From Amphiscolops sp. MND2022 (lineage: Eukaryota): a DNA stretch of 64,000 nucleotides. Under the pieces are notes generated by a model, which was not told the origin of the DNA, did not search any database, and saw only the letters and a list, made by a program, of their open reading frames with translations. This document shows positions 1,138 to 37,650 of this stretch, in pieces. The position numbers and the translations under genes were made by a program. Numbering within the stretch: the first letter of the stretch is position 1; each line of letters opens with the position of its first letter. Location of the stretch: positions 10,232,001 through 10,296,000 of the forward strand of contig OZ076409.1 in assembly GCA_964187785.1 (NCBI GenBank), given 5' to 3'.

Positions 1138-1917
1138 GGGCCCCTCTTGAAGCAAGAGACAAGGGTAGACCGTGGCAATGCGGGATTTCTTTTTTCATTA
1201 AAACTGAAGGGCGGCTGATGTATTTTCGTACTTGGTGGGGACCACGTCCTCTTCCCGCTTTCATGTATTCAATTTTCTTCTCCTCTTCTTCTAAGTCGAG
1301 TACCATTTTTTCCAGATATTGCATTTCTTCAGGAGAAATCTCGGGCGGCTTGCTTTTCTCGTTCAGGTCATTCAGGGGACTATCAGGACAACGGTTTTTT
1401 TTCGGTAGGGCAGCTACTCTCGGTGCGTAACTACCACGTCCCACAGCCGCAAAGTAATTGCGGTCTTCTATATCTAGGTTGTATGTAGCTTCCAGCTCCA
1501 TTATTGATGGCTCGTTTTTATTCCCCGGCTTGATTGTCTCCGGCGCTCTCTCATTTCCTAGCTGAGGGATGTTGAATTTCTCTTTTAGCGGCATTGTAGG
1601 TTTCAACGTGGAGGTCTGGCATATTGGTGAGTCTGGCTCCTCATAGTAGCTATCGGAGTCCGATATTGAACCTCTTGCGGGGGGCAGATCAAACGAAACT
1701 TTAGGAGCTTTTTCTTTTTGGGAGTAGGTTCCGTTTTCTTTACGTCGCAGTCTGTTTCAAAAGTTGAATCCAGTTCGGCGTCAGTGGATCGCCAAGCCTC
1801 TAGTGATGAGTCGCTTATATTCAATTTTCCGACCATGTTCACGGGCACTGTTTTAATTGGCGTGCTGGTCATTCCTTCATCCGATGAGATGTTAATGTCT
1901 AAGGAGTAGCCGTTCAT
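1043..1917 (-). CDS. Sense-strand 3' accessory ORF(s) of element A, unknown function; runs into the 3' LTR
   Basis: Overlapping ORFs 1603-1917 (ATG start) and 1043-1606, probably one frameshifted gene; basic KKKK patch; no recognisable domain. Confidence 0.45.
1138..1148 (-). promoter_or_regulatory. Candidate polypurine tract of element A
   Basis: Minus strand reads AAGAGGGGCCC immediately before the TGTCA start of the 3' LTR. Confidence 0.55.
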
Positions 1918-2439: not shown

Positions 2440-5400
2440 ATGAGTGAAGACGCTGTTCCTCCCGGTGTCTCTGGCTTTCTCAGTGGGCATGAGACTAACT
2501 TCTGCTTCACTGAAGACGACGCTTATCCTTCGGAAACGGAAGTTGTAGTTACTTCTTCAGGTTGGTAAAATCTTTCTGACTTCCTGGGCAATAGGACTAA
2601 TGTTATTTTGGTGATCAGCCTTTTATAGTCTTACCCGTAACTCTGACGCCTCTGAACCAGATCTTGATTTCCAGTAACTCAACCTGGAACTTCCTCGGCT
2701 GTTGTTTCCGCTGCCACTGCGGGTGGGACCTCTGCTACCCCCGTGGGGTTATCTTTGCTGGGTTCTTCTTTGAAGTTGCCTCCAGTGACTTCAGTGCTGG
2801 TTCCTGAGCAGTCCATCAATGATGCTTTGACGACGTTGCTTCCTGCTAATCCTACTACTGAATCTTCAGTAGTTCCGGGCGTTGATGTTTCCTCTGCGGT
2901 TCCTCCTGATTTGTCCGAAGTAGTTCCGGGCAATTTTGATGTCAGTGTGGAGCCTCATGGAAGTGAGGCTGCTACCACCTCCACAGGAGAAGAAAATGCG
3001 GTAGAAGAGGAGAATACGCCAGGCTGTAAGTTGTGTATTTGCATGATTATTTCCTTTTGTTGTTTTTATTATATTTTTTCTTTTTGCCCACTTGTTGGGC
3101 TCTGTTTTCCAGTTTTCATCACGCTTGTGTTGTAGGTTCGAAGGTGTTTCCATTCCGGAAGACGAGCGTGAAGTTCATGGAATCTTCTCCGAAAATAAAA
3201 AGGACAGCACGGGTCCCAGAGCTTGATGTCACCTTTGAGCGGTTGGAGTGGGGCAGAAGACGTATCATTTTCGGCGACTCCTGTGTCACCCGAAATGATG
3301 CAGCTGGGTCGTCAGTTAGCTTCAACGGTAGAAGAGCGTACGGCTCGGCAGATACAGACAGGTGTGTTGTTTGTTTGTGATTGGCCTCCTGTTGATGGTG
3401 TGTAGTACGTTGCGGCGACGTTTGTTTTGGGTATTTCATTTGTTTGATTATTTTTGTGTGTATTATAGTCTTTAGCGAGCTTGTTGAGATAGTGGAGAGT
3501 CACTTTGAGCGCCCGAAGACAAAAAAGTATAGCAGTCGTATTGCATCGTCGGATGCTAGCCTTGAATCCGTTGTTTGCTGATTTCGTGACGGGTTCGGAG
3601 TGTGGAAGTGCAAAGCTCTTCTATTGTCGTATTTGTAGAAGAGAAGTAAAGATGGGCTCAAAAGGGGCAGCTGAGTTTGTTCGTCATTTTGAGTCGAAGA
3701 AGCATTGGGAGCAGGACGTCACGTATCGTGTGCACATGGGTCTCCCTGTGTACAACAAGCTAATGAAGCCCATGGAGCTGGGTGCCCGACAGAGGGACGA
3801 CTTTCTTTCGCGGCCCTTCGTGGATTTGGGCGGGGAGTTTCCTTTCCCTGAGGACATGTTGCCCAAACATTCAAAAGCGTCTTCGAAGGTGCCACTGATG
3901 ACTCTCGTTTCGAGCTTGAGTGATGTGTTACGCAGTGGCGGAGATTTCACGTTAGTCCGTCGCCTGTGGGGCTATTTCCTTGCGTCTCTGGGCGGTCGGG
4001 ATTCGGAATTCACGCTACAGTGGAGTCGTTCAGAGACAGTGGTTAGTACTTTTGTGTAGTTAGTTCATTTAGTGAGTGGTGTTCTGTTGTGTCGCATTTG
4101 CTCCTTTTATTGTAAGCTGCTAGGTAGCCATAAAGGTGTACTGTGGTGTGATTTCGTTCTCTGTTGTTGTTTGTTTTCTCTTCCTTCTTCTTTTTCATTT
4201 GAGTGTTTGTTTTAGTCCGTGTTGTGTCAAGGCCTTGTTCCCCGCGTGTTGCGCGTGATGTTCAAAAATATTGGGCAATTTCGGGAGTATGCTCTACAAT
4301 ACGAGAAGAGTACGGAGGTGGAGCGTTGTTTCGTTCTCTTCTGGGAGGACAATTATTTGAAAAAGGTATGTGTTGGTTGTGAGTCGCTGCTGCAGCGTGT
4401 GCCAACACCAGAGTTGCTGCCCTTGGCACGAGTCGTCTGTAGTCTACCGTCTGGGAAGTTGCCCTTGGCCATAGTTGGCGGAAGTCCGTCCTTAGTCCGT
4501 GTCTTGGGTGACACTCGAGCTGACAGTCGTGTCTTCGTGTCTTACCAGCCTTTCACTAGTGAGATGTTGATTCGTTGTATCCGGCAAGCCTACCAAGACG
4601 TGTTCAGTATGATGGAGGTGACTTCCCTGGTGGATTATACTGTGTTACGCTTGAATACTGCCATTTACGAGGACTGGATGGAGGAGAGAACCATACTGTG
4701 TAAAAGTCTTCGTCAGGGCCACGTGGAATTCGCTGATTTGCGGGAAGTACTGTCAGATCTGATCGAGTTATGGTCCTCAATACGTCCATTTGTTCGATGT
4801 ACTGGTAACCCTGAGGCTAAGGACAAGGCTGAACGGGTGAGTGAAAATTGTTTTTTTCTTCCGATGTGATTGCGGTGTTACGTATTGTCGTATCCTGTTG
4901 TGTATATTTTAGCTGCAGGGGATTGATTGGTTACTAACTGCCGATAAAATGATAACGTATCGATTCGGTCTGCTGAAAGTGATCCTTGATACTTGTGAGT
5001 GTTCTCTTTTTGAGTTGATGGATGGTTTCTTGATTGTTGTTGACTGTGTATTTGTTCGTATCATTGGTTGTTCCTTTCTTTCTTCCCTTTTTTTTGAGTA
5101 TTGGGGTAGGGTTGTTCTTCTGTTGTATACGAATCATGGTGTATGTTTTAGTCCACAACAATTGCCCCAAGTTGCGACAGGGTCAGGCAGATTATGCTTT
5201 CCGTGCTTATGGCGAGTTTTGTAATTTTGTGTATTGCCTGCTCTTGAAAACTCGCAGCACCAGTGGTCTTCCTGAAATTCATGCTTGGGAGTCCTACATG
5301 GATGTCGTGAAGGTCCGAGATTTCGCTGTTATTCCGTGCGATTCCTTTCTTTCCAGTCATGACTTGGGCGAGCAGTTATCCGCAGGCAAGACGAAAGAGT

Positions 5401-6453
5401 ATGTGGCTTTCCGGCTTCATTGTCGACAGTTTGTTGATCGTCTGATCATCATTTTACTGGAAAGCACATATGCACGTTCTGTTATTGCCAAGGGGATGTG
5501 CAGTTTCTGTCCTGAGTTGATGTAGGAAGGTGATGATGTGGCCGTTTTCAGTCTATTTGCGGATTTGTGCCGTATTCTTGTATCCTGTGGTTCGCTGGGT
5601 GTGGACGAAAGTAGTGCAGCTTTGGAGGAACATGCGAGTTTCATTGTGGAAAAACGTGGGTATCATTCCTCGTCAGGGCAGTCTGCTGGTGACATCGTGG
5701 ATGTGGTGCCGTACCTGCTCCGTGATGTTGGATTTTTGTCACGACCACAATTGCTCCGAGTATTCAAGCTGTGTTGTCTTGTCTCGGGGGTGTCTGCCTC
5801 GCGCTATCCTGCCATGTCTCTGGATTTATCTGGAATTGCATTGAGTGTTGCAGACTTTCAGAGCTGTGTGCAACTGGTGCAGTCTTATATATTTAGCGAA
5901 GGATATTCGCATCAGTCCTTCTTCAGTGATCAGACTCTTAAAGTTGTGAAAAAGGCCATCGCAGATGCTGGTAGATTTTTTGGAGCGTCTAACTTCAGTA
6001 TGTGGACAGAGTTTTGCGGGGAGGATGTGGATGCCTTTGTTGCAAAGTATAGTACGCTATTTACTACTTTCCTCGTGGTGCGCCGGAAGAACTTCGATGC
6101 TCGTTATGTGGAGTACAACAAAGCAAATCGGATGTCTCGGTTGTCTGAAAGTGGCGATACAGCTGGTTCGAGTGGTTCCCTGAGTTCTGTGATTCAGCGG
6201 AGGAGGCAAGATACAGGTCCTCCGAGTGTTGTTTCCGTGAAGTCTGGTGGCAGTGAGTCAAGTAATGGCGGAACAAAGTCGGGGTCTAAGTCTGCTACTG
6301 TTTCGTCTAAAGGGAAGCAGCAGAAAAACGTCAGTGGTAATTCGGGTGGTGAAGCTGGTTCATCTAAAGGAAGAAAAGAAAACTGTGCGGGATGCTGATG
6401 ATGATGGCTCTGGTACTCAGCCAAAGCCTAAGAAAGTGTCCAAAGACTGTTGA
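2440..6453 (+). pseudogene. Antisense spliced gene of element A encoding a zinc-finger, hAT-transposase-like protein
   Basis: ATG at 2440. GT-AG introns at 2561-2674, 3026-3135, 3362-3468, 4042-4215, 4837-4912 and 4995-5151; the first and last three join the ORFs exactly in frame. Probable 1-nt indels near 3200 and 3525 and an in-frame TAG at 5523. Contains the motif CRIC-x16-HFESKKH. Confidence 0.82.
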
Positions 6454-6864
6454 TGATTTGATTTCTTGTAGACTTTGATGTAGTTATATTTTTCTTTTAT
6501 TGTCCGCTGATCTCCGTTGTATTAGTCTTTGACTATATAGTTTTAGAGAATCCCGAGAAAAATTGACGTAGCCATTCCGGTTCGGTTTGGTTTGCTGAGT
6601 GTTTTGGCTAGTCTTGAGTTGGACGTGAGTCCTCCGTAGTAGCTGAGTCAAGCATTCGAAAATGAGGATTGACATTAGGATTCGGATTAGGTCGTAAGTT
6701 GTATCTTCCCACTTTTCTAGGATTATATCCAACGACGATACGCGGCAATTGGGGTGTTTTGGGAGGGCTTTGTATCGGCGGTGGGGTCAAAATATATGGG
6801 TTATCACTGACATTTAGATCAAATGAGGTAACGTTGTCGGAGGGTGTTCTATCTCCTTCAGTGT

Positions 6865-6995
6865 TTTCATTTGTGGGTGTTTGAACCATTTCATTTTCCA
6901 TTGTAGTTTCGCCAGTGGTTGTTTTAACCACGTCATTTTCCGTTGTAACTTCGCTTGTGGTTGTTTTAACCACTCCATTTTCCGTTGTGCTGTCG
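6865..6995 (-). repeat. 42-bp coding tandem repeat in the integrase C-terminal tail
   Basis: TTENGVVKTTTSEV / TTENDVVKTTTGET / TMENEMVQTPTNEN. Confidence 0.75.
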
Positions 6996-9900
6996 ACGTT
7001 TCCTGTTGTGTCTGCGATTTCTGTAACTGTAGCTTCTTCGGCAGCGTTTTCTGTGGTATTTCCGAACAGAACTTCTCCGAATTCGGTTTCCCAAGCTTGC
7101 GCGTACCAATCATTGTGGGTTGTTTTAACCTCTGGATCTGGAAGGTAATCTTCCCTTCTGACCGTTACATCAGGTACTCGCTGATTGGGCGCATATAGCC
7201 TTAGGCGAATTCTATGGAGGGTTTGAGTATACCTAGTTCCCGTGCGACAAACGACGTAGTTGTTGTTCGAGAGTACTTTGACTAGTATGTAGGGTCCAGT
7301 CCAAATGCAATCTTTAAAGGCGAATTTCATTGACTGATTGTCTGCCTTCGGATTAAGGACGTAGCAGTAGTCGTTGACTTTGAGCGGTGTAGCCGTTGCT
7401 TTCTTGTCATAGTACTGTTTGTATTTGAGGTAAGACTGCATTAGGTTCTCTTTGGCAGCTTGGTGTATTTCGGCTATTTGTTTCTGTAGTTGGTCTGTTA
7501 GTTCTTCGTTGCTATCTTTTTCCCAGTTAGGTTTCAATCCAAGTTTTATGTCCAAAATGTTGTACGGAATGCGTCCGTGAAACACTGTTGTAGGTTCACA
7601 ACCTAGGCTTTCATGGTAGCTTGTATTGTAATTCATGACTGCAATCTGGACGTATTTGTGCCACATAGAGCGTCGTTCTCCCGTTGATATCTTCAAAGGG
7701 GTTTTCAAAGAAGCATGAGTCCTTTCTAGGATGCCAATTGTTTGGGCGTGTTTCGTCGATGCGTGGCTTATCCGTATATCCAGTGTTTGTGCTATTTGGT
7801 TGACTACTTCTGACCTGAATTGTGATCCTTTATCCGTTAGAATGACGGTCGGTAGATAGCAGTGTCGTGTCATGACGTCTATTATGCATCGTGTGACTGT
7901 TTTTGCTGTCATATCTTGAGTCGGGTAAGCAAAAAGGTAACGCGAAAAAACATCCATCATTGTTATGATGTGTTGGTATCCATTTGAGAAAAGTAGGTTT
8001 GGTAGGATATCTACTTCTAGACAGTCTTCTGGTCCCATTGTGAATTCAGTGTTGCTTAGCATTTTGGGACGTATCTGTCTCGTGTCAATTCTTTTATTGG
8101 CAATGCAGTCCTGACAACTGGTTACCCAAGCTCTGATTTTGCGTGCAAGACACGGGAAGTAGTATTTCGTTCTGCATTCTTGTATCATTTTGGTGATTCC
8201 TGGGTGTTTATTTGTTTTTCCATGTAGAGTGGCCAAGAGTTCTGGGACTAGGTGTTTTGGAATTATAATTTGGTTATGGGTGACAGATCCGTCTTCTCCG
8301 TAGTATTTTCGCATCAGAACTCCATCTTTCATTATGATTCTTTCTTCGTGGCGTAATAGGTTTCGTCCTCGTGGTTCAGTTTTGAGAAGGTGTTTGTCAT
8401 ATTCTTCGTGTGAGATCCGTTGTTTCAGTGATTTGAGGAGAGGGTCTGCATCTTGCTCGTTTCTGATCCGTGCATTTTCCTTAATTGCACCGAAGGAGTA
8501 GACTGCGGAGTTGAGTGGTATCTTGATGACTTCGGTTACTTTTGTTGATAGTTCTCTCTCATGTTCGTCTAGGGCACGTCGCTTGCTGAGTGCTTTTCGG
8601 GCGAAAAATTCCTGTTCAGATTCATCTTCTTCGTCTGGTAGGAACAAAAGCTGTTCCTCGTCAGCTACATCTGATGATTGTAGGTTAACCTCGATTGGGG
8701 ACGTTAGGATGTCGTCTCGTAGTTTATATTGTACCTTTTCTTTCGGTGTAAGTTCAAGTCTTGAGAGAAAATATGCTGCCGTGTTTTGGGAGCCTGCTAC
8801 GTGCATAATTCGGAACTTGAATTGTAATACATATTCACAGGCATTCCAGAGTGCAGGGGGTGTCGTTTTTGTCTGGAAGAATCTAGTTACTGAGCGGTTG
8901 TCCGTTAAGACCAGCGTTGGAATTGTTGTTTCCCATAGTATGTGACTGTATTCGAGGAAAGCATGGTAGATTGCGAAGAATTCCTTGCAATAGATGGACA
9001 TTTCCAGTTGTGCAGGTGAAAAAACTCGTGATCCGAACGCTACTGGTGCGAAGGTTTTTCGTTTGGAGAGTATTTTGCGTTCGTCGTTCTCCTCAATCAT
9101 GAGGGCGTAGCCTGATGCACGAAAGCTTGCATCCGTCATTAGAACGTACTGTTTTCCTGCTATGGGCTGTCGGAGTGCGAGTCCACAAGCTTCCGCTAAA
9201 CTGGCGTTAATTTCTTTAAAGTTATCGACAAGTTCTTCTGAAATTCTGATCTTGGAGTCTCCTTTGAGAAGTTCGTACATGCCGAAGAGTTTTTCTGACA
9301 AGCGCGGTATGTAATTGCGGTAATAGTTAACAAAGCCAATGTATTTCTGAACTTGTTTTTTGGATTTGGAGAAGCGGACTTTGGAGAGGAAATTTTTGAC
9401 CTTTTGATCTTGCGGGGCTACTCCGTCGGGGGTGATGGTTCGGCCAAGAAATTCGATTTGGGTTTCTCCAAAGTGACATTTTTCGATGGTTAGTTTGAGT
9501 CCTGCCTTTCTAATGCACTTGAAGACTCTGCTCTGATGTTCTTTATAAGCTGTTCCGTTGTATTTGCGGCGATGCCAATGTCATCTACATATTGTGCACA
9601 TTGGTCTGCTTTGATGACTGAATCCAGATACTCACGCATAAAGCTCGAAAAAGCTGAAAGAGCTCTGCTTAGTCCTTGTGCCAGGCGACGGTAGGCGAAC
9701 GTCCTACTAGCAAAATTGAAAGCAAGTAATTCTACTGACCTTTGATCTGCCATTTGGAGGCAGTGGTACGCCTGGGAGCAGTCAAGCTTGCAGAATAGTT
9801 TTTTCCCTGCTAGGTGTTGTGCCGCGTCTGAGAGGGTGCTGACAGGGTGGTTGTTGTTGATGTAGTCATCTGCTATGAGTGCATTGATTTTGCGCAGATC

Positions 9901-11827
9901 CACCAGCAGTCTCAGCTTGCCGTTGTGTTTCCGCTGTGCAAATATAGGACTGGCGTACTTGGAGAAGGGGAGTGTCGTGATGATACCGTATCGGTGCATG
10001 AGGGCCAGTTCCACAGTTAGTTCTTCTTTGAGGTTGATGGGGACTGGTAGGCTTTGTGTTTAGACTGGTTTGTCGTCTTGTGGTGTTAGACTGACTTTGA
10101 ATTGTGTGTTCATCCCGATGTGTAGCCGGTGTCGGGCGAAGATGTCGTTGAAATCGACAATGGTGTCCTCAAGGTTTTCACGGTCTTTGTTCGCAATCAG
10201 TGAATCTGTCCATTTGAACATGGATAGAAATTTGTTTCGAGACTCTTCGTTTTCGGTTGGGTCAAGTTTTTCTAACTCGGCCAGGTCTCGCAGTTCTTTC
10301 AAGATTCGCTTTTGTATGGGCGAATGTTCCTGTTCGTTGCCTGGGTGTTCTGGGGTTGGAAACCAGAATTTCTCTTCATTATCGTCGGGCCGCTCTACTT
10401 GCATTGGTGCATTAATGTACGTAACCACATCGTCATGTTCGGTGAGAAGATTCAGGGCGGCTATGTCAACTGGACGGATCATCTTCGTTTCTTCGGGTTT
10501 CAGGATTTGCAGTTCGGCCATTTTGGTGTCAGTGGCTATTGTGTATGGGAAGTCTGAGTTATTGGCGATTTTGATTGGTATCTTTTTATCCCTGGCTGTG
10601 GTAATTGCTGGGGCCACTATTACCTTCGCGCATTCGTCAAATTGTGGTAAAGGTTGTATTGTGCCAGTTATTGAGTGTTCGGTACTCACAGGGATTGTTG
10701 CGTAGATGATTCGGGTAGAGTGTGCTGGAATTGTATGCTTGGCTTCGGTCTTTATTGTGATGGGCTTGGGATTGCACTTTTGTCTTTCATCTGTGAGCGC
10801 CGTCGTGATTTGGATTTTAGGAAAGTCGATGGTTCCTTGTGCCGTGTCGAGAAATGCGGCGTGTTTACGTAGGAACGCTAATCCGATTATGGGGAATGAC
10901 GTTTGATTCATGATGATGAATGTTTCTTCGAAGGTGTAGGCCCCTATTTTGAAACGTAGGGTGTACGTGGCGAGTGGTTGTTCTAATTCAGCATTGGCAT
11001 ACTGCACTTTGAAAGGGGGTGGGGGTGCCTTGTTGACGATGCACTGGCTAGCGTGCTGTCGGAGTTTTTCAGCGTCCCTTTCACTAATAGCGTTAAAGTA
11101 CGCACCTGAGTCGACTAGAGCGTCGATTTTGATTGTGTTGAATTCGACTGGTAGAAAAAGCATTCGTTTTTTCTTCTTGAGAGCGATGGAAGACATTAAC
11201 AGATTGTAGTCGTCATCTTTGTCGTGTTGGATGAATTCTTTGATGGCATCTAGATCTTCAGGCAGTTTTGAGGGACATTCCGTGATTTCTACGTCGTCGT
11301 CCATCAGTGCTGTGACTGGCGCAGTTTTTGGAGGGGTTACTGGAGGATCAGCATTTTCTCGTTTTCGTCTTTCTTGATGTGCCCATATTGTTTTATCTTC
11401 AATGCAGATTATATTTTCTTCATCTATCGGTGTGGACGTGATGGTGGCGGGTACTGTTGGGGATGGTGTTGTTCTTTTCAGGATCGGTGACGGCGGTGAT
11501 GGTAGGTTTGTGATCCCCGTAGATTGAGCTTGAGGGTTTGAGACTTGGATTTTGAAGGATAGTTTATTTGTATCATAGATAGTTGGTTGATCCCAAGGGT
11601 CACATCTGTAGTCTCTGTCATTTATATAAATTCGGTCTGTTTTTGATTCCGGCAACGGTCTTTTGAGTGTCGCATAGTTATCGGGTGACTCCGTTATCCA
11701 CTGGGGTAGTGGCGTTGGGTCGTCTGAGTGTCTGGCGTTATGCCTGACTATCATGCCTACGTTCCAACGGCGTTGCCAGTCTTGAGTTGGTTCTTCATTA
11801 CATTCGGTTAAAAAATCTTCCTCATAC

Positions 11828-11907
11828 CTGTTTGGGGGGTCCTCTATCGTGTACGCCCTCGCGTCTACTTTTTCCCCAAATCGTAGGCGCGGCGATTTCA
11901 GTTTTTT
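11828..11907 (-). promoter_or_regulatory. Programmed -1 frameshift signal (A AAA AAC plus stem/pseudoknot)
   Basis: Heptamer 11907-11901 directly precedes the gag TGA; the -1 frame is open into the 564-aa protease ORF; a GC-rich stem follows, and its loop TTTGGGG is complementary to downstream CCCCAAA. Confidence 0.8.
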
Positions 11908-13307
11908 GACTGGGAGGACAGTGTGGGTACAGGTTGTTCGCTGATTTTGTTGGTTGGAATGGTGAATTCATGTTTCTTCCTTCTGGGGTCATTTGCTGCA
12001 TTGGTTCCGTTCCAACAGTTCTCAGTTTTGTGCATCTTGCCACATCTATCACACTTGGGCTTGGGTGCTTCGTTTTGGGCTGGGTCTTTTGTGTTTGTTT
12101 TGGCGATATTGTAGCGCTCTCGTTGAAGTCGGCGACACTGTGCTTTATAGTGGCCATATTTGCCACAGTGAAAGCAATGACCTCGTTGTTGTTGGTCTTT
12201 TTTATCGTCCGTCACTACGGCGTCCACTGTGATGAGTGGGACTAGGGTTGTTTCGTCGGGCGCACCTAGTCCGTTTAATCTCATTTCCCTCTCAAGATGC
12301 AAAACTACGTCAGTGTAGGGCTTATCTTCCAAATACGCTCTGTTGAGGATCTTCTTGACGTGATCCGGCATTTTGGCGTAGATTGCTTTATCAATGAATC
12401 TTTGTGCTTCTGAGCCGAATGCTTCTTTTGCAGTTTTTTGCAGGGCATCAAGGAACTCATGGAGTTTCTGTTTAGTGGGGTCAAAATGCAGCGCATCCCA
12501 CTCGCATCTCGCTTTAGCACATGATTGGAAATCACCAAAGCGACGTTTGAATGCCGTTATGACTTCTTCTAGGTTGTCTTTTTTAGTGTCATCTAGATTA
12601 CAATACGCTTGTAGCGCGTTTCCTCGTAGGAGTGAATGGAAGTAGTTGATCTTTTGTATCTCAGTTAGGTGAGGGTACATTTTGATATTATTTCGGAATA
12701 GGTCCTGAAAAAGTTCAAACTTTTCGGACTTACCATCGAAGACTGGAAGCGAAGCAGTGAGTGCTTTCGGCATCGGAAGTAGGTTGGTAGCTGAAAATGT
12801 TTGCGGTTGTGGCGCGAACAGTATTTTAGATGTTGAAGGACGGTCTTTTGTCTGCTCGTTGGATGCACGTTGTTGTTTCGATCTTTTCGTGGGTTGGTTG
12901 GTAGAGTCATTGAGGACTCCTGTCACCATGTTACGACTATTTATCGGTGTTGTTTTAGAGTTAGCCGCATTGTGAGTTTTGACTGGGGTAGACGTCCTTG
13001 CTACGGAAACATTCTCCGTTTCAGAGTCAGAGTCTTGAACATTCACGTGGCCAGTTTGTTTCTTGTTTAAAGGCGCTATCAGTTTAAGCATTTCCTTTTG
13101 ATTTTCCGCAAGTATTTTAGTCAGATCAGACATAATCTCCTTTCTTAGTGACGTTTTAATCTCAGCCAAGCCCTCTGGTTCTATCCTAGGAATCTTGCTG
13201 GAACTTGCTAAAAGGGTTTCAGGCGGAAAGTTTTCGGTTACAGAAGTTTCGAAATCACCAGGGACTAAACCAGCTACGATTATCTTTTTCTGGCTTCTAG
13301 TTGTCAT
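11898..13307 (-). CDS. gag: Gag of element A (469 aa from the first ATG), two zinc knuckles
   Basis: LPVFDGKSEKF...LLRGNAL capsid-like motif; CFHCGKYGHYKAQC and CDRCGKMHKTENC. Confidence 0.9.
   Translation of the reverse strand: MTTRSQKKIIVAGLVPGDFETSVTENFPPETLLASSSKIPRIEPEGLAEIKTSLRKEIMSDLTKILAENQKEMLKLIAPLNKKQTGHVNVQDSDSETENVSVARTSTPVKTHNAANSKTTPINSRNMVTGVLNDSTNQPTKRSKQQRASNEQTKDRPSTSKILFAPQPQTFSATNLLPMPKALTASLPVFDGKSEKFELFQDLFRNNIKMYPHLTEIQKINYFHSLLRGNALQAYCNLDDTKKDNLEEVITAFKRRFGDFQSCAKARCEWDALHFDPTKQKLHEFLDALQKTAKEAFGSEAQRFIDKAIYAKMPDHVKKILNRAYLEDKPYTDVVLHLEREMRLNGLGAPDETTLVPLITVDAVVTDDKKDQQQRGHCFHCGKYGHYKAQCRRLQRERYNIAKTNTKDPAQNEAPKPKCDRCGKMHKTENCWNGTNAANDPRRKKHEFTIPTNKISEQPVPTLSSQSKN
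12914..12928 (-). promoter_or_regulatory. Primer-binding site of element A (tRNA-Leu-like)
   Basis: TGGTGACAGGAGTCC abuts the LTR end and is identical in element C; the first 13 nt differ at one position from the typical tRNA-Leu(CAG) PBS TGGTGTCAGGAGT (from memory). Confidence 0.75.
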
Positions 13308-15311
13308 TTCGGTTGAGAGAGAGAGAGAAAGTATCTTTGGAAAAGTTGAATTCTTCGAAGAGTTTAGTTTCCTTTCAAACACGTTATGATAACGGAACAG
13401 AGCTAATTATTACAAAGCAGGTCAAAAACTAACTGAATTACATGTATGTTTTACATATTTATACCTTCCCAGCATCATTTGTTCCTCACCTAAAAATTCC
13501 TAGGTATCACAAAAATCGGGTTTGTTCAACAAAAAGTGCTAATGATTCATATTATTTCAGTCCCGCGTCATAAAATCAGGTATCAAAATTCCTAGTTGCG
13601 TCAGCGTTCCGTAAAACTTTGTTGAAATCATTTTTGTTCAGGCGATTCATTTCCTGTTTGAGTTTCAAAAATGCGGCAAAATAGAAGTCTAGCTGGCATT
13701 TTCATTAGCGTAGGCACCCCGGCGTGATCAATTAGTCAGCAATCAGGTTGGGAAACTGAAGTTTGAAGCAAAAGAATGACACTCAAAAATGGCGACGGAA
13801 TCGCGACGGAATGAATTAACTTGGAAGCGGAAGGAAAATATGGAAATTTGGTATAAAAGAACAAACGATGCTGAAACGATAATCCCAAATTCAAACATAT
13901 GAATTACCTGCTAATGGCATACTACATCATTTATACTGAACACAAATTAAGTCCGAACGGGACTTTAACGGAATGCAACAATGATTATACTGCTAATTAG
14001 ATGAGCGCAACATATTCGTAGTATTAAGTGGAAAGCAACTTCAACATTTTACACAATAATCGTGAAATTTGTCAGAACATAACCATAGTTTGGGTCAAAA
14101 CATAATCATAGTTTGGTCATTAGCCTGATTGTTGTTATCACAAAATACAACTGTTATTACTGACTTGAAAACAAGGAATTAGCGTTGACCTTACGTCTTG
14201 CATTAGGATTATTATTAAGATATTTTAGGTGCCATAGTAAACCAAGTAGATTTGTTCCATTAAGGAAGTACTAAACAAAGCATAATGTCAACGCGATCTA
14301 GTGATTTACCATGATGATATAAATCCAGAACATAAAAATACCATTGCAATTTCTATCATCCTTCCTTACAGTACAGTTTTCCTTATATAAGAATCATAAC
14401 TCTTAAATCTTTTAAACGCATCGATTTAAAAAACTTCATTTGGTTTTCGTTTGAACCAGTATTTCTCATTTGCGATTTTACAATTCGCTCCGTAGATGCT
14501 ACGTATTAAGATTACCTATAGTTGGACAGCGGAATACAATTTTACAATCCGCTCCGTAAGTGCTCCGTACGTATTAAGATTGCATATAGCTGAGCAGCAG
14601 TAGCAAGCGGAGTGAAAACGGAGAGCGTAGGCGATTCTATTCTCTTTTCTAAGCTAGTAAGCGTTGCTAGGGGCAACCAAGCGTAATTCTACTGGTACGA
14701 GCTCAGATTATTCCGCCGGCAAGTGACGCTATTGGTCCGTAAAAATAGAAACGCCTGTTACTAAGCCTAGTTGAGTGACGCTGTCATAACGTTGTAAACA
14801 TTTACTTAAAATCACTTGACTGCGATTTTAAGTGGATATTTAACAACTACTTTAATATTGGAATACATTTCCACTCTGTTTTTGTATGTTCTTTCATTTT
14901 AGATCTCATGGACTCCGTTGGGATCTCGGAGTTAAACGTTGTTTTTGTGTTTTCATTTTAGTGTGGAGCGCCAAAATGATCCCGTTTGCAAAATTATTTA
15001 GTGTTTAGATTGGAATGGAAAACTCAGAAGATAAAACCGGAAATAAAGCGGTGTTGCGTGTGAAAACATTAGACCGGAAGTTTTAGCTAGTTTAAAGTCA
15101 TTTCTTAAAATCTTCCGTAACGCTTACGTTGAATTCTGTATCTGAAAATTATTCGCACTTATTTAACTGTACTGTAAGTAGAATTTTTGGTTTGGTTTTG
15201 ACTAGTTTAACAAAGTTTAAAGGTATTTACTCTGTCCTTGTCCATGTCCTCTGCCGAATCCCGGTATTGCAGAGCAGCAAGTAAAATTACAACCGGGAGC
15301 GGGTCGTGACA
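12929..15311 (-). repeat. 5' LTR of element A (~2.38 kb)
   Basis: Termini TGTTACGAC...GTCGTGACA form an imperfect inverted repeat; PBS is adjacent; the right half matches 1-1137. Confidence 0.82.
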
Positions 15312-27139: not shown

Positions 27140-27352
27140 AAATCTGCACTGAAATGATAATGAAGCGGTCATAGAGATCTTGTCTGATAAAGTAAGTTAG
27201 TTTTGGATATGCACTGAAAAGATAATGAAGCGGTCAAAGGGACCTTGTCTGATCATAATGGTAAGTTTCAGATATGGACTGAAACGATAATGAAGCGGTC
27301 AAAGGGACCATGTCTGATGAAATAAGTAAGTTTTAGATCTGCACTGAAATGA
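27140..27352. repeat. 65-bp tandem repeat, ~3.3 copies
   Basis: G(C/G)ACTGAAA at 27146, 27211, 27276 and 27341; the first three are followed by GATAATGAAGCGGTCA. Confidence 0.85.
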
Positions 27353-27544: not shown

Positions 27545-29950
27545 ATACCCTTTGGGATCAATCAAGTCCGACCCTGTTTACCACATCGTTTGGAGCAAGC
27601 CTGAGACTTTGTAAAGTCTTCCATTATGTGGGATAGGAATTCCTTTTTCTCCTTTTACTCTTTTTGTTTCGTTTTGGTTGTTTTGCTTTTGTTTCTTTGT
27701 GAAAGAGTGATAGTTTACACGTATATTGTTTCGTGTGTTTGTATTCGTAGGCTCTCATCTGTGACGCAATGTATCCGCGCGTTCTTGGCTATGTGTTTTC
27801 TTCAGTTGGACGCTTCAAGCAATACAGTGTGAGGTTCAAGGAGCAGGGCGATGCTGTTTATTGCTATGTGCGGACGTGGCATGAGTTGCCACTGAAGCGA
27901 GTATGTGTTCTTGTGGAGGACCTTCATGCCCCACTACCTCGTGCTGAGCTGCCATGCTTGTGTCGGTGATCGCCAATAGTGTGGGTGATTTGAAATTCCC
28001 TGTGGCGGTTGTCGGTGGCACTTCGTCATTGATTAACTGTTTGAATGCTGTTTAAGACGATGGGGTGTCATTTGTGCCCTACCCACCCTTTTCACCTGTT
28101 GTTTTGATGGAGTGTATTCAACAGGTTCACCAGGACATCTTCGGTATGATTGACATTGTGACAGTGGTTGATTATCTGATGTCACGTTTGGGTACTGCTC
28201 TCCACGAAGAATGGCTTGATCGTCATGTTGTTATCCGCCGCTCTGTCCGCGCGGGACATGTGCCCTTTGAAAATTTACTTGCTACGGTTGACGATCTCGT
28301 GTCTATGTGGCAGCCCATTCAGCATTTTGTTCGTTATACCGGTCCGACACATATCAAGGAGTAGAAGGTCGATGTGAGTATTGTGTTGACGTAATGTTGA
28401 CGATCGCTTATTGTTGTAGCTGTTTATGTGACATCTTGTTCAGCGTTCCATTCATTATCTTTGCTGATAAGCTAATTCCTCTTAGGTTCGGACTCCTACA
28501 GATGGTCCTAGAGTCTTGTGATTATGTGTGTCGCTATTCATGATTGTAATTGTGGCTGTTTCTGCTTACTTGTGTTTGGCAACTTCCTGCGTTCTTATGT
28601 GGATTGATTCCAATTGTCCTCTTCTCTGTTGTTTTTTCCGCTTTTGTAGTTTGTGGTTTGGTATCTTTGTTTGAAGCTGATGTGTTTAAGTTCACCTGAC
28701 TTTCAAGAAGATGGCACAGCGACGTGACGACTATGGGTTTCATTGTTACAATGAGCTGTGTCACTTTGTTTATCGTCTGCTGGGGAAGACTCGGGTCCTT
28801 GGCAGTTTACCTAGTATCCATCAATGGGAAGGATGTATGACAGTGAAGAAGAACCAGTGAAGAAGATGAGCCCTATAGCTGACGACCTGCTCTTAGTTAA
28901 TCAGCCCTTTGGAGAGGGTCTGTTGGCAGCAAAAAAAGTGGTGCCCGAGAGTTCCGTCTAGAGTGTCGTCGTTTTCTGGATCATCTCGTGGACAAGATTC
29001 TTCAAACTGTCCATTGTTCGTCACCAGTTTCTCAGGGCTTAAACTTCGTTTGCCCAGAATTATTACTTGACGGAGATGACGTTGTCGTACTTTATTTATT
29101 TGCGAATTTTGTGGGCTGTCTTGATCGTTGCGGATTGTTATAGTCAAGCAAAGTTGCTGAGAGCAAGGCTGATTTCTTGTCTTACGTGATGGAAGCTCGG
29201 CAGTAGCATGTGTCTGGAGGGACTGTTTCCAGTGATGTCTAAAAGGTAGTGAGGTATATGATGCGTCAATATGCTTTTCAGTCTCGGCATTGCATTATGC
29301 GGGTGTTTCAGCTGTGCTGTTTATTTGTGTAAACCAACATGTCGTCCCAGCCCTAATTGATTTCGACATTAGCGAGTGTGTCATTTGTCCTGGGTTGCTG
29401 ACATCATGTTTGAGGTGTGTGCAGTCTTTTGTTAGTTCTGCTAGCTACGACCAGTCGTAGGTTTTCTCCTTGACGACTATCGATAAGGTTCGGCAGGCAT
29501 TGGGCGAGGCTGATGCTTTCATGGAGAATGCTTATTTTATTCCTTGGGATGGTGTGTGCACTGGAGATTTCGCTGGTTTGCTTCGTCGATTGGATGCTGC
29601 TTACACTTCTTATTTGCAGGATCAGGTGAAGAGTGCTGAGTCAAATTATAAAGCAGCAAAGGACACAAAAAATTGAGACAAATTGTTAAATTGTTGTTAA
29701 ATTTGAGACAACCCAATCATCTGCTGCTACGTCATCCGTTGCGTCTACCAAGTCCGTCACTAAGCCTCAAGCTGTGAATAATGAATAATGATGGGGGAGC
29801 ATTTGTGAAATCAATTTTTGGTGATGGTGGTTCTTCTTTCAGACGTGTTGTCACTTCTTGTCAGCGTGGTAGAAGACGTGTTCGTCCGAAAAGAGGATCC
29901 GAGTCGCAAAGAGGTTCTTAGTCTTCAAAGTAATCTTTCCTGCCTGTTGA
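27545..29950 (+). pseudogene. Homolog of the antisense spliced gene in element C (3' part)
   Basis: ALICDAMYPRVL vs SVLCQGLVPRVL; ADKLIPLRFGLLQMVLES vs ADKMITYRFGLLKVILDT; acceptors at 27750, ~28443 and 28690; donors at ~27611, 28374 and 28518. Confidence 0.8.
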
Positions 29951-30109
29951 TTGACTTTTATGATTTTTGTTGATTGTTGCGTTGTATATTTATCACAGTT
30001 AGGTTAGTTTGTTCTGAAGTTTGGAATGGAATTTTTTTGATAAACTGATTTTGATTTGAGTTGGTTAAATTTGAAAACCGTCGGGCTGGTTCAGTCTGGA
30101 CTCTGATAT

Positions 30110-33100
30110 TTGTTTTATGTTTCGAGTTATGTCAAGAGCGTCTAGTCGTCGAAAGTCAAGTTTTGTTTTGGGCGTAGGGTTTGGCCTTAAATTGTAATCT
30201 GCCACTTTTCTTGGATTATATCCTATTGAAATGGGAGATGATTCATTTTGGTAGTCTAAGTCGTCTATTGGCGGGGGGTTAGTTATGAAAGGGTTATCAC
30301 CTGCGTCCGTTGTTAAGTTGGAAAAATCCGGAGTTGACTATGTGTCCTCGTCTAATTCGTCGTTAGTGTCAGTTAGGTGGATTTCTTGAACATGTGGTGT
30401 GCTATTGGTTATTTGTTCTGAAGGCGTTATATTCTTGTTTTGGTCTTCAAAATTGGAATCGCTTTGGCGTAGCATTCATTGTGTTGTACTAGTACTTCTG
30501 GGTCGGATAGGTAATCCGTTTGCTTTACTGTGACGTCAGGTAGGCATTGATCTGGTTTGTAGGTACATAAGAGTATTCTGTGTAATGTCTGGGTATATCT
30601 CGTGCCCAGCCTGCGTATGGTGTAGTTGTTGTTTGAGAGGACTTTGACTATTACGTAAGGACCCGTCCATATGCATTCGTTGAACGAGAATTTTGTGGAT
30701 TGGTTATCTGCCTTTGGGTTGAGAATGTAGCAGTATTCGTTGACCTTTAATGGTGTTGCGTCCGCTTTTCTGTCGTAGTAGCGCTTGTATTTGATGTTTG
30801 ACTGCTTTAGGTTCTCTTTGACTAAGTTTTCCACCTCGTTGAGCTGTTTCTGTAGTTGGTCTGCTAATTCTGTGTTACGTTGTTGTTGCCATTGGAGTTT
30901 AGACCCTAGTTTAAGGTCTAGTGCATTGTAGGGAATGCGACCATGGAAGACAGTTGATGGTTCGCAACCTATGCTTTCGTGATATCTTGTATTGTGAATA
31001 ATGACCGCGATTTGTACGTATTTGTGCCACATTGATTTCCTTTCTCCGGGAGATTTTTAGTTCAGTTTTGGTTGAGGCATATGAGTCCTTTCGAGAATGC
31101 CAATTGTTTGTGCATGTTTTGTGGTTGCGTGTCTGATTTCTATGTCTAGGATCTTGGTAATTTCTTGTACCACCTCTGCTGTGAATTGCGATCCCTTGTC
31201 TGAAATTATTGTGGTGGGGAGATAAGCGTGTCTCGTCATGATATCAATGATACATTTTCCCACTGTATGTGCTGTCATGTTTTGCGTTGGGTATGCGAAG
31301 AGATAATTTGAGAATACATCTATCATCGTGATGATGTGTTGGTATCCTGCTGCGCACGGTAAGTTGGACAGTATATCAATCTCGAGTATGTCTTCTCATC
31401 CATTGAGAAATCAGTGGGGTTGATCATTTTGGGGCGTGTTTGTCGTGTACTGATTCGTTTGTATTTGATGCAATCCTGGCAGGTTGTTACGCATTTTTTG
31501 ATGTATCTGGCCAACCCTGGGTGGTAAAATTTCGCTCGGCACCCTTGTATCATCTTTGTAATTCCTGGTTGTTTCACTGTCGCTCCTTGTAAGGTTTTTA
31601 GTAGTTCGGGAATGATTTGTGTTGGTAGTATAGTTTGATGGTGAGTGATTTGGCCACATTCTCAGTAATATTTGCGCATTAGTACTCCATCTTTGATGAT
31701 TATTAGGTTTTCGTGTTTGAGTAGCTTCTGTGCTGTTGGGTTAGTTTTTAGTAAGTGTTCGTCATGTTCTTCGTTCGATAGTTTGGCCTTGATTGTTTCA
31801 GTATGATGTCTGCGTCCTGTTTGTTCCTGATTCGTGCGTCCTCTTTGATGGCTCCTAGTGTGAAAGATTTTTTGTGGATGGGTATTATATTGGTTTCTTG
31901 GATTGTTGCTGTGATTTGGGCTCGTTCTTTGGCATGTTGTTTTCTAGGTAGCGTTTTTTGTCAGTCTCGCTTGTTTCGTCGGGTAAGAAGAACCGTTGTT
32001 CTTCTTCTGCCACATTGTTTGATTGCATTTTTATTTGTATGGGGAGGGTTTGTATATCTTCCGGGATGGTGAGTTCGATTTTTTCTTTTGATGTTAGTTC
32101 CAATCGAGAAAAAAAATCTGCTGCCGTGTTGAACGTTCCTGCAACGTGTGTGATTCTAAAGGTGAATTGGAGGATGTAATCGCAGGCGTTCCATGAAGTC
32201 GGTGGTATTGCTTTTATTTGGGAGAATCCGGTGACATATCTGTTATCCGTCATGACTAATGTGGGTAGTGTGGTTTCCCATAGTATATGGTTATACTCGA
32301 GGAATGCATGATAAATTGATGGGAATTCTTTGCAGTATAAAGACATTTTGAGTTGTGCTGGCAAGAACACTTTTGAACCAAACGCTACTGGGCGAAGGTT
32401 TTCTTTTTGGAAGTTAATTTTTTCTCATCTTGTTCTTCTATCATTAGTGCGAATCCCGATGTTCTAAAGCTGGCATCTGCCATGATGCGGTATGGCGTCC
32501 TGTGATAGGCTGTTTAAGTGCTTGTCCACAGGCGTCTGCTAGTGCTGTGTTGAACACCTTGTAGTCATCTAGTGTTTCCTCTGTGACTCTTAGCTGTGTT
32601 TCATTTTTAAGAAGTTCGTAGAATTGCCTCAATTTCTTTGATAGTCTCGGTATATAGTTTCGATAATAGTTGATGAATCCAATGTATCGTTAGACTTGTT
32701 TTCGTGTCTTCGGGAACCGTACCTTGGCAAGGAATTTTTTGATTTTGTGGTCTTGAGGGGCTATTTCAAGGGTAGTGATTGTTCTCCCAAGGAGTTCTAC
32801 TTTGATTTCTCCGAAGTGGCATTTTTTGTATTGTTAGTTTTAGGCCTGCATTGCGTATGCACTCAAAGACTGCTCGGATGATGTGTATTAAATGGGCGAC
32901 CGTGTTGGCTGCGATGCCAAAGTCGTCAACGTTTTGAGCACCTTGGTCTGCTTTTTTACTTTATCCAGGTATTCCCTCATGAAACTGGAGAATGCTGAAA
33001 AGGCTCTGCTGGGTCCTTGCGCTAGTCGTTTATAGGCGAAGGTTCTACTGCTGAAGTTGAACGCCAAGAGTTCGACTGATCGCTGGTCGGCTATTTGATG

Positions 33101-36071
33101 GCAATGGTACGCTTGAGAACAATCGAGTTTGCAGAATAGTTTTATCACTGCTAGGTGCTGGGCTGCGTCTGAGAGTGTGATCATGGGATGGTTTTTGTTT
33201 ATGTAGTCGTCTGATACCAATGCGTTTATTTACCTCAGATCTACAAGTAGTCGCAGTTTGCCGTTAGGCTTGCGTTGTGCGAAGATGGGACTTGCGTACT
33301 TGGAGAATGGTAGTGTCGTTATGATGCCATATCTATGCATTAAGGCTAGCTCTACTGTGATGTATTTTTTGAGGTTGTCGGCACGGGTAGACTTTGTGTG
33401 TATACTGGGTTCTAATTCTTTGGATTTAACTTTACTTTGAAATCATTGTTGATGGCTATGTCGAGGCGGTGACGTGCGAAATTGTCGTTGAATTCTATTA
33501 TTTCATCCTCAAGTTGTTGTTTGTCTTCTCCTTGTATGATGGAAGAAGTCCCATTGGAACTTTCTGAGGAAAAGTTTGCGTGACTCGCTATCCTTGGTGG
33601 GATTTAATTTTTCTTCTTGTTCTAGTTCTCTGATTTTTTTGATGATGCGTTATTGAATGGGCGTATCTTCGGCTTCGTTTCCAGGGTTCTCAGGGGTCAC
33701 GAACGAGAATCGGTCTGTTTCAGAAAGGTCAGAAGCAGTTTTCCTTAATTCATTCACATACGTGATTGTGTCGTTGGGGTAATCTAGTAGTTTGAGTGCT
33801 GCGACGTCTATTGGGCGTATGTTTTTTGTGTCATCTGAATTTCGTATTTGTAGTTCAGCTCTTTTTGTGTTGGTGGGTATTGTGTAAGGCGCGTCCGTAG
33901 TGTTCACGACTCTTATTTTGATTTTTTTTGTTATCAGCAGTGGCTAGTGCGGGAGCCACTATGATTTGGGCATCTTCGTCAAATTGGGGTTGTGGTTGTA
34001 TTGTGCCTGTGATAGGGTGTTCAATATTGGTTATAGCTACGGCATTGACGGTTAGAGTTTGTTGTACCGTTGGCCTTTATTTGGATGGGGTGAAGATTGC
34101 GTTTTTTCATTTCGTCCTTCATGGCTAGCGTCATTTCTACATGCGGAACGTCATGGTGCCGTTTGCAGTGTTGAGCAGGGCTTGGTGATTTCTCATGAAA
34201 TTGAGTCCTATTAAAGGAAATGATGTGCGGGACAGTACAACTAAAGTATCTGAAGGTGTACGTTCCAATGTTAAATTGTACGTCTGCTGCTGCGATCCGT
34301 TGTTCTATTTGTGCATTTGCACACTCAATTCGGAAAGGAGGTTGGGGGTTGCTTTTATGGTGCAATTTTCGGTGTTGTTTTCGATCAGGATATAGTCTGG
34401 ACATGATATGGCCGTCAATTGTTTTTTCTCCGAACTCGAGTGGGATATTGAGCATGCGTCTCCTCTTTTTGAGGGGGATCGTGGACATTAGTGTTATGTA
34501 GTTGTTGTTGTCCTTGTGGATGATGATTTCTTTTATGAAACTGAGTGATGCTGGAAGGTCAAGGTCGCTAAGGTGTTGTTGGTCAGTTGTTGTTGTTGTT
34601 TGGACAAAGCTTCGGTAGTGACTGGGAAGTCATATTGATGTTGAGTATTTGTGTTTAGAGTATTCGATGGTGCTAGTTTTTGTCGTGTTTTTGTTGGTTT
34701 GGTGATCGTCATTGTGTTCTGATGTCGGGGGAAGGAGACGTTTGGTTGTCATGTATTTGTCCTCTGCCTCTGTTATCCATGGTGGTTTTTTTGGTGAGAG
34801 TGTCTGGAAATGTACTTTTTGATTGCTGCTATTTCCCGTCTTCTTTGCCAATCTTGTGTTGGATGCCCGCTGCAGATTTGACTTGAGTCGTGATTGTATT
34901 GCGTCGTGGGGTCTTCGATTGAATATGCACTCGCATCTACCTTGTCCCCGAATCGCAGTCGCGGCATTTTGAGTGTTTTGCCTCTTCGTTTGTAGTGATG
35001 CTGGTTGTTTTGTCAGCGTTTGGGGGTGCAGCGTTGTGTCGTTTGGGACGCGGGTCGTTGGCTGCGTTGGCGCAATTCCAGCAATCCTCTGTTTTATGGT
35101 GTTTTCTGCAGGTTTCGCATTTTGGTTTGGGTGGTCGATGTGTATTGGTTTGTCCGTTTTGTTTTCTCGTTTCACGCCATTTGTCCCGTTTAAGCTTTCG
35201 GCAATGGGCTTTATATTGTCCATATTTGTTGCAGTAGAAACAGCAGCCTCGTTTTGGTTCAAGTTTCGTGGTTGATGCCGGTGTTGTTTCAATGTGGTTT
35301 AGTGGGACTAAAGTGACGTCGTCAGGTGCACCTAGACCGTTAAATCGCATTTCTATTTCGAGATGGAGAACAAGGTCGTTGTAAGGTTTGTCCTCTAGGT
35401 ATGCGTGGTTGAGTATCTTTTTCACGTGGTCAGGATTTTTTGCATATATTGCCTTGTCGATAAAGTGTTGGGCTTCCGCTCCAAACGCTTCTCTCGCTGT
35501 TTTTTGTAATGAGTCGTGGAATTCGTGTATTTTTTGAGTGGATGGGTCGAATTTAAGTGGGTCGATTTTTTAAGTCGATTTTTTAAATGTTGAATTTATC
35601 CCATTCGCACCTGGGCTTTTGCCATTGATAAGTAGTCTCCAAATTGACGTATAGTGTGGTCAAGGTTGCGAAAAGCTTGTAAAGCCTCGCCTCGTAGGAG
35701 GGAGTGAAAGTAGTTTATCTTCTGTATTTCATTGAGGTGGGGATACATTTTGAGGTTTTTTTGAAAAAAATCTTTGAACATTTCGAAATTTTCGCATTTA
35801 TTGTCGAAAGTTGGTAGTGAAGTTGTGAGGGCCTTGGGGATGGGGAATGCATTGTTGGCGTCCATTTGGCTTGATGTGCTGAATAGTGTTTTGGTGATGT
35901 TTGGACGTTCCTTGGCTGGGGATTGGCTTTGTGTGCGCCTTTCGTTTTTTTGTTGGGGTGAGTGGGGCCGTTAGGGACTCCTGTCACCAAGTTACGAGAA
36001 CAACTGGGTTCAAGATTTTCCACGTTGTTAAAGCGTAGGGTCTTATTAGGTGAAGAGCGTGTTCTAACTGG
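30110..36071 (-). pseudogene. gag-pol of element C, heavily fragmented
   Basis: Fragments KINYFHSLLRGEAL, CFYCNKYGQYKAHC, LFCKLDCSQAYH, SDKGSQF and MWHKYVQIAV match element A. Confidence 0.9.
35975..35989 (-). promoter_or_regulatory. Primer-binding site of element C
   Basis: TGGTGACAGGAGTCC, identical to A; the adjacent LTR end reads AGTTACGA (A has TGTTACGA). Confidence 0.75.
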
Positions 36072-37543: not shown

Positions 37544-37650
37544 TGAAGACCAGTCAAGAAGTCAGCAGTTGAGGTGTGAAGACCAGTCAAGAAGTCAGCA
37601 TTTGAAGTATGAAGACCAGTCAAGAAGTCATCGTGGAGTGTGAAGACCAG
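37544..37650. repeat. 33-bp tandem repeat in the 3' region of D
   Basis: TGAAGACCAG at 37544, 37577, 37610 and 37641. Confidence 0.85.

Follow-up and report, generated by a model that had tools for sequence, protein, structure and literature searches.

A dead, truncated copy of a probable antisense accessory gene of Ty3/Gypsy-type retrotransposons in Amphiscolops sp.

The window analysed here, 64,000 nucleotides (nt) of the Amphiscolops sp. MND2022 assembly GCA_964187785.1 (contig OZ076409.1, positions 10,232,001 to 10,296,000), contains two long terminal repeat (LTR) retrotransposon copies, elements A and C, each of which carries a plus-strand gene antisense to its own pol. We found that window 27565-29918 (+), within element C, is a decayed, 5'-truncated copy of this multi-exon gene that runs convergently with pol. 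Six in-frame stops and several frame changes interrupt it, and 209 of the 729 aligned columns are absent. Taken as a whole, the evidence makes it probable that we see here the truncated and dead remains of an accessory gene belonging to a large Ty3/Gypsy-type group, whose expression and role we infer from the comparisons below. Exon and intron coordinates are collected in Table 1.

To place the gene copy of C we drew on searches of the genome (1.07 Gb, 1929 contigs) and on 12 diverged copies of the element that were fetched from it at 10 kb each (labelled L031 to L042). The genome contains wnt genes and gave no match to PF00379, the arthropod cuticle domain, on which grounds the host was taken to be an animal. 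The nearest fetched relative of C, L034, aligns to the window at 27565-35819 only (80% identity), and C is thus cut at both ends. The truncation point, 27565, lies close to the start of the feature as first noted, leaves roughly the last 15 codons of exon 1, and is preceded by sequence unrelated to the gene. Three peptides mark the remaining coding pieces on the plus strand, namely WSKPET (27591-27608), VVGGTSS (28008-28028) and MVLES (28502-28516), and the gene ends at about 29918, facing the stop of the convergent pol at 30427. Directly upstream of the break, at about 26900-27350, the window has short tandem repeats with translated units of the form ..CTEKIMKRSKGPCL...

A fuller copy of the gene is present in element A at 2668-6398 (+), between the LTR at 1-1138 and the pol stop at 6608. 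The two LTRs of A (1-1138 and 14175-15312) are 97.5% identical by blastn over 1138 nt, and its minus strand matches the Pfam models RVT_1, RT_RNaseH, RT_RNaseH_2, Integrase_H2C2 and rve as well as an aspartic protease and the gag model DUF1759. The order protease, reverse transcriptase (RT), RNase H, integrase, the H2C2 integrase finger and the flanking LTRs identify the carrier as a Ty3/Gypsy-type element. In both A and C the gap between the end of the antisense gene and the pol stop is about 200-500 nt. The peptides of A that correspond to those of C are WSRSETV (4021-4041), IVGGSPS (4471-4491) and VILDT (4979-4993), and three frame changes coincide with canonical introns. The copy in A is better preserved than that in C, yet it is broken as well, by the stop at 5523-5525, which is seen in A only and in none of 29 other close copies, and by frame changes in the 5' part and in the tail. 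A conserved YAG acceptor stands 12 nt before an LVEKVE motif in the region where exon 1 starts (window 3468-3552), and together with the conserved coding pieces upstream of it this acceptor argues for at least two more 5' exons; a pattern search for the end of the upstream exon gave no match. As established by comparison of copies, then, the studied part of the gene holds three introns, and no fewer than two further exons lie on its 5' side. It extends further 5' than the initial annotation had assumed, and its protein would be longer than the 870 amino acids (aa) of exons 1-4. A 237-aa open frame on the minus strand (window 1043-1756) crosses the inner edge of the 3' LTR of A at 1138.

The initial annotation had described the genes of A and C as homologues at the same position and in the same orientation, with little similarity in DNA and clear similarity in protein. 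Indeed, all six peptides lie on the plus strand as they had been placed, and blastn of A against C aligned pol alone (68%/67%) and nothing in the antisense region, while tblastn of the plus-strand frames of A against C gave collinear matches in exon 2 (33-40% identity, E 2.9e-39), exon 3 (41%, E 1.6e-5) and exon 4 (50%/37%, E 3.9e-17; 37%/26%, E 1.3e-19). The same place, orientation and convergence with pol were found in 16/16 elements examined, that is, in A, C, the 12 fetched copies and two copies of an intronless clade. Exons 1, 2 and 4 are followed by a convergent pol in 12/12 fetched copies, with exon 3 detected in 10 of them, and all five exon pieces are kept as single uninterrupted matches in 21 of 29 further close copies. 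Three element clades, all in this genome, carry the gene.

The first-look candidate totals, which are uncurated lower bounds and not copy numbers, were 5458 for exon 2 of A, 3052 for the piece from C and 12123 for the intronless form. All 150 scored matches to exon 2 of A had E <= 1.6e-78 at 56-100% identity, and 135 of them were free of stops; relatives of the C piece ranged from 94% down to about 40% identity, and the intronless form gave 54 matches, 40 of them without a stop. The accessory protein changes fast, its identity being 25-56% where that of the RT is 86-98%. Relatives in public protein collections are all unnamed; they brought the intronless clade to light, one of them, P0212, being 100% identical to a locus of this genome (G000:C5:40514273-40516855). 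A homologous-protein search with exon 2 gave no match, and a scan of JGI metagenomes with alignment A6 returned 82 pattern matches, of which 0 were confirmed.

With the exon boundaries aligned, donors of the form GT[AGT]AGT and pyrimidine-rich YAG acceptors fall at identical positions and in identical phases in the 12 diverged copies, the exceptions being two donors and one acceptor in decayed copies and exon 3, which was not located in two. The intron positions reported earlier as shared hold in A and in these copies, and in C they hold in part. There, canonical signals survive at donor 2 (after KVD), at donor 3 (1 nt past MVLES, phase 1) and at acceptors 1 and 3; donor 1 has lost its canonical form, and an indel in exon 3 leaves acceptor 2 ambiguous. 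Intron lengths vary across copies (87-178, 76-139 and 130-191 nt for introns 1, 2 and 3), and the splice dinucleotides are kept in 28-30 of 30 close copies. In four close pairs the exons are 92-99% identical against 76-93% for the introns; the pairs A-L042, L031-L042 and A-L031 were left out of this comparison, their exon 1 and exon 4 spans being of unequal length. Intron 1 is open in frame in some copies, where it would code for unconserved hydrophobic runs.

Two kinds of intron absence bear on the same question. In L036 and L040 intron 3 is missing to the base, and the resulting junction, LDT-F-HIH with the codon T + TC, has the codon that splicing predicts. In the third clade the gene is a single frame of 870-872 aa that lacks introns at all three sites; its pol is again convergent, its RT is 86-87% identical to that of A, and the window exons are collinear with its proteins, with zero residues inserted at the exon junctions. 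The comparative evidence for spliceosomal introns is thus strong. As for the 3' end of a transcript, AATAAA or ATTAAA was found within 500 nt of the stop in only 2/7 copies, and nothing was concluded on poly(A).

The ratio of non-synonymous to synonymous change (dN/dS, NG86) was taken from unsaturated pairs, and since dS is saturated in most pairs it rests on few close ones, in which part of the differences arose after insertion: L036-L040 gave 0.10, 0.01 and 0.08 for exons 1, 2 and 4, L035/L039/L041 gave 0.07-0.39 over the same exons, and L031-L042 gave 0.16 for exon 2. As judged by these ratios, live lineages demonstrably keep the antisense gene under purifying selection.

We also compared a tree of pol-module DNA with a tree of the antisense protein. 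In each of them {C, L034, L037, L038} stand apart from the ten remaining rows (100/100), and C pairs with L034. Within the A group the two trees conflict, pol placing A with L033, L036 and L040 (100/100) and the antisense protein placing it with L031 and L042 (100/100). In approximately unbiased (AU) tests, for which the clades were named after the trees had been seen, the antisense data reject the pol clade (p 5.0e-7) and the pol data reject the antisense clades (p 6.6e-6 and 1.5e-4). A is 90-91% identical to L036/L040 over a stretch that begins at oriented position 3842 (window about 6557) and continues across pol to the 10-kb end, and its antisense region is barely alignable with theirs, blastn finding patches of 68-81% only; the break at about 6557 falls between the two stop codons of the antisense gene and pol. 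The tree conflict, the abrupt break in identity at the module border and the unchanged insertion point together argue for recombination and not for independent insertions. At the level of these alignments and trees, recombination between element lineages has clearly swapped the antisense module against the gag-pol module. Retroelements are known to exchange sequence between co-packaged RNAs, and the simplest reading would be one old acquisition followed by recombination that swapped the 3' module between lineages.

In summary, sequence comparison demonstrates, as far as it can, where the gene lies and which way it runs, how its exons and introns are arranged, that purifying selection acts on it and that it recombines as a module, and these findings suggest how the gene might work. 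Its mRNA would be made from the strand opposite to that of the genomic RNA, starting on the side of the 3' LTR, and would then be spliced. The introns, being antisense in the genomic RNA, would not be spliced from it and would be copied at each retrotransposition, which is how they could survive the cycle. The exact loss of intron 3 would fit recombination with a reverse-transcribed spliced mRNA. Exons 1-4 predict a product of about 870 aa, to which the 5' exons would add, with an N-terminal CX2CX16HX5H finger, an alpha/beta middle, an all-helical C-terminal half and a lysine/arginine-rich tail. Such a protein might act in the nucleus, bind nucleic acid and work for the benefit of the element, for instance through control of element expression, through targeting or by counteracting silencing, and it may have descended from an inactive hAT/BED-type transposase. 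The fast change of the protein relative to the RT is compatible with a conflict with host defence, and relaxed constraint would explain it equally well.

Such an origin is the best of the other readings that we weighed. It holds that the protein descends from a catalytically dead hAT transposase (BED finger, RNase H fold) that was captured and kept as a DNA-binding or targeting factor; it concerns origin, is compatible with the accessory-gene explanation, and seems to us possible, with the balance tilted against it. The CX2CX16HX5H spacing of the zinc finger is invariant in alignments A4 and A6, the protein has many conserved aromatic and cysteine positions, and its tail is rich in lysine, arginine and serine. 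A finger of this kind at the N-terminus and an all-helical C-terminal half would suit a hAT descendant, and the best local hhalign match sets the finger on the BED finger of hAT transposases. In the ESM Atlas the features of P0212 reach 0.90-0.93 with hAT-derived families (Dimer_Tnp_hAT/DUF4371 clusters at 0.93, FAM200C at 0.92, GTF2IRD2 and ZBED5-like at 0.91), and nine of the ten best named matches belong to one clan; P0112 gave weaker matches of the same kind, and the two count as one source. Foldseek ranked the Hermes transposase first and fourth for a model of exons 1-2 (E 2.6e-3 and 3.9e-2; for the first, 406 columns, probability 0.33), with other RNase H-fold proteins among the matches (integrases, a resolvase, a terminase nuclease), and the exon 2 model has the order three strands, helix, strand, helix, strand, helix. 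We take the Hermes match and this order as weak pointers, because they come from poor models.

Against a hAT origin, the exon 2 model has a predicted local distance difference test (pLDDT) score below 50, the template modelling (TM) score of the Hermes match is 0.10, no Foldseek match reaches E <= 0.001, and the catalytic DDE residues could not be aligned; for the C-terminal model the best Foldseek match had E 2.1. The hAT dimerisation model PF05699 has no match in 29 family members at E <= 10, and the same model finds 150 scored matches elsewhere in the genome; PF14291 has no match in this genome at all. No other Pfam model matched any of the 29 members at the same threshold, and exon translations, P0112 and others gave chance-level matches only. 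The abundance of hAT DNA transposons in this genome is an observation of its own (L043-L048; 2215 first-look candidates for PF05699, several with open frames of 597-697 aa).

Several of these results weigh against the accessory-gene explanation too. Besides the Pfam result, a search of PDB sequences with profiles A1 and A3 returned nothing or chance matches, and the AlphaFold models are poor, with a mean pLDDT of 44 for exon 1, intron 1 and exon 2 of L036 and of 51 for exons 3 and 4. The named ESM matches share 143-160 of 256 features, which the tool itself rates as distant relative or chance. In a profile-profile comparison by hhalign with six hAT transposases found in this genome, the probabilities were 0.14% and 0.24%; this result and that from PDB speak against the hAT origin as well. 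The limits given above for the dN/dS pairs and for the choice of AU clades count on the same side. Conservation of the gene is established within this genome, from which at least one of the public relatives also comes; splicing and expression are read from comparison of copies; and a function of the protein as a factor serving the element is what we would predict from these features.

A second alternative is that A and C each acquired the gene separately from the host, by nested insertion or by recent transduction, and that it is a passenger which they do not need. Gene transduction by LTR elements is known, as the review PMC7264820 describes, and the pol and antisense trees do disagree within the A group. 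We nevertheless find this very improbable, because place, orientation and intron positions are the same in 16/16 elements from three clades, the deep split between A and C is congruent in both trees with C sister to L034 in each, dN/dS is well below 1, candidate copies number in the thousands, and the break in identity lies exactly at the module border. The initial annotation had taken the gene for an old, selected component of the family and not for a chance nested insertion, and this stands on the common layout, the shared introns, dN/dS of 0.01-0.39 and the thousands of candidates. The comparison of trees agrees with it for the A/C split and the pair of C and L034, and departs from it within the A group, where we read the incongruence as recombination.

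The plus-strand frames might instead be non-coding, open by chance or conserved as RNA or cis-acting element sequence. The conclusions do come from sequence comparison, and no known protein family matches; even so, synonymous change far exceeds non-synonymous change in frame, exons are better conserved than the segments between them, frames of 870-872 aa are open in 40/54 matches of the intronless clade, and protein similarity outlasts DNA similarity, so that we regard this reading as hardly credible. Finally, the idea that IVGG/VVGG marks a degenerate trypsin-like serine protease or some other dead enzyme has next to nothing in its favour: the motif [IV]VGG[ST][PS]S is indeed common to A and C, as had been noted, and its third-place glycine is nearly invariant in alignment A1, but the counterpart in the third clade varies (RGCS, ENCS, VDCP, LGCS), neither peptidase S1 nor any other protease or enzyme family was found in the 29 members at E <= 10 or in PDB sequences, and the catalytic loss once proposed for both copies is accordingly an interpretation, unproven because no enzyme family could be matched.

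Returning to the accessory-gene explanation, its boldest form would have a whole, highly successful group of animal LTR retrotransposons depend on the product of a spliced antisense gene, an inactive protein like a hAT/BED-type transposase, as a targeting or anti-silencing factor. We think this unlikely. If it were true, a DNA-transposon protein would have been recruited by retrotransposons. The very fast evolution of the protein and its shuffling between lineages as a module make a pattern that one would expect of a factor in conflict with host defence.

Table 1. Features of elements A and C in window coordinates, and two gene copies of the intronless clade in their own coordinates.
Feature	Position	Strand	Basis
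A 3' LTR, cut by window start, partner 14175-15312	1..1138	-	blastn
A upstream coding pieces, frame change between 3030-3377 and 3199-3402	2668..3402	+	tblastn to L042, L031, L032, L033, 39-73% identity
A exon 1, CX2CX16HX5H finger, end ..WSRSETV, one frame change in 5' part	3468..4041	+	conserved acceptor, alignment A4
A intron 1 (GTTAGT..TTTTAG, phase 0)	4042..4215	+	splice signals, copies
A exon 2, 207 codons, open, holds IVGGSPS	4216..4836	+	tblastn, genome copies
A intron 2 (GTGAGT..TTTTAG, phase 0)	4837..4912	+	splice signals, copies
A exon 3, 27 codons plus 1 nt	4913..4994	+	tblastn, splice signals
A intron 3 (GTGAGT..TTTTAG, phase 1), exactly absent in L036/L040	4995..5151	+	splice signals, copies
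A exon 4, in-frame stop 5523-5525, C-terminal tail frame-shifted	5152..6398	+	open reading frames, copies
A gag (DUF1759), aspartic protease, RT, RNase H, integrase	6608..13406	-	Pfam
C exon 1 remnant, last ~15 codons (..VWSKPETL)	27565..27611	+	motif position, start of L034 alignment
C intron 1, donor non-canonical, acceptor TCGTAG, phase 0	27612..27750	+	same position in 12 other copies
C exon 2 with VVGGTSS, one frame change, in-frame stops, end ..KVD before GTGAGT	27751..28373	+	tblastn match with exon 2 of A, E 2.9e-39
C intron 2 (donor GTGAGT) and damaged 5' end of exon 3, acceptor ambiguous	28374..28435	+	sequence reading
C exon 3 (..FADKLIPLRFGLLQMVLES plus 1 nt, phase 1), donor GTGATT	28436..28517	+	tblastn 41%, E 1.6e-5
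C intron 3 (GTGATT..TTTAAG)	28518..28690	+	splice signals
C exon 4, stops and frame changes	28691..29918	+	homology to A until 29649; tail matches L034 to ~29918
C degraded integrase, RNase H, RT, protease, gag, convergent with antisense gene	30427..35569	-	open reading frames, tblastn to A pol
Intronless-clade gene copies	L049 1741-4356; L050 1582-4191 (G000:C5)	convergent with pol	single open frame

The window as a whole is a nest of LTR retroelements. At 36071-53910 (-) it has a 17.5-kb retrovirus-like element of another family, with LTRs at 36071-36370 and 53611-53910 that are 98% identical and a 725-aa envelope (env)-like frame at 40321-42498 that matches PF24664, the Monjiviricetes viral fusion glycoprotein (E 1e-20), and adjoins gag and RT-RNase H-integrase frames. 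The same env family has left an older, broken copy at 16698-21235, which is 72-83% identical to 43055-47779 in many collinear pieces, and frames at 59909-63720 (+) resemble the gag side of the family (..HHFQY.FF..), probably as another copy in the opposite orientation. The GC skew of 36000-53000 and 60000-64000 is very strong and strand-specific, +0.36 to +0.50 and then -0.46 to -0.57, and follows the orientation of the env elements.

Among known systems, the deltaretroviral antisense genes HBZ of HTLV-1 and APH-2 of HTLV-2 (PMC11963269) share with the window gene a coding gene on the minus strand of a retroelement and, as far as that source describes them, expression from the 3' side and a nuclear regulatory product, which for the window gene is a prediction. 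They encode basic leucine zipper proteins of complex mammalian retroviruses, and a relation in sequence to the window gene is not expected. HBZ has a spliced form. The window protein would resemble FAM200, ZBED5, GTF2IRD2, EPM2AIP1 and Hermes in its zinc finger at the N-terminus, in a C-terminal half made of helices, in length and possibly in an RNase H-like middle part; it differs from these hAT relatives in that no significant sequence or profile match was obtained and that its gene lies inside a retrotransposon and not at a host locus.

A closer likeness in layout is found outside animals. The gene brtn of Boty-like Ty3/Gypsy elements in Botrytis (Zhao et al. 2011, as cited in PMC7264820) is antisense and has the same place and orientation. 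It encodes a small cysteine-rich, Zn-cluster-like fungal protein, and the window gene is of animal origin, codes for at least 870 aa and is of another kind. Plant Ty3/Gypsy elements with antisense open reading frames in the interval from pol to the 3' LTR include Grande of maize (gene23), RIRE2 of rice and Retand elements of Silene and other plants (TRP28/PF04195; PMC11963269, PMC7264820). That model (PF04195, Transposase_28) had no match in our 29 family members at E <= 10, nor in the exon translations at E <= 1. Nuclear localisation has been shown for gene23 of Grande (PMC7264820, PMC11963269), neither source uses the word "intron" in its main text, and the review PMC7264820 asks for a look at spliced antisense transcripts. 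A full-text literature search, with subscription journals and Repbase reports outside its coverage, found no antisense gene of an animal LTR element.

The window gene may thus offer a system for asking how and why a retroelement keeps an intron-bearing gene and how lineages exchange modules. Its conserved intron positions, exact intron loss and intronless sister clade give natural support for real splicing, its large protein belongs to a family not described before, and recognising it matters for annotation, where thousands of such frames would otherwise be called host genes or missed. As the two plant sources portray them, the plant genes resemble it in several ways. They too are accessory genes that sit between pol and the 3' LTR on the strand opposite gag-pol; most copies and diverged lineages carry them, they lack a clear homologue, and a nuclear or DNA-binding, regulatory role has been proposed for their product, as we predict here. 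Set against those plant cases, the window gene has an animal host, a much larger protein of unrelated sequence, a C2H2-type finger and conserved introns. A layout known for plants and for one fungal family recurs here in an animal genome at very high copy number.

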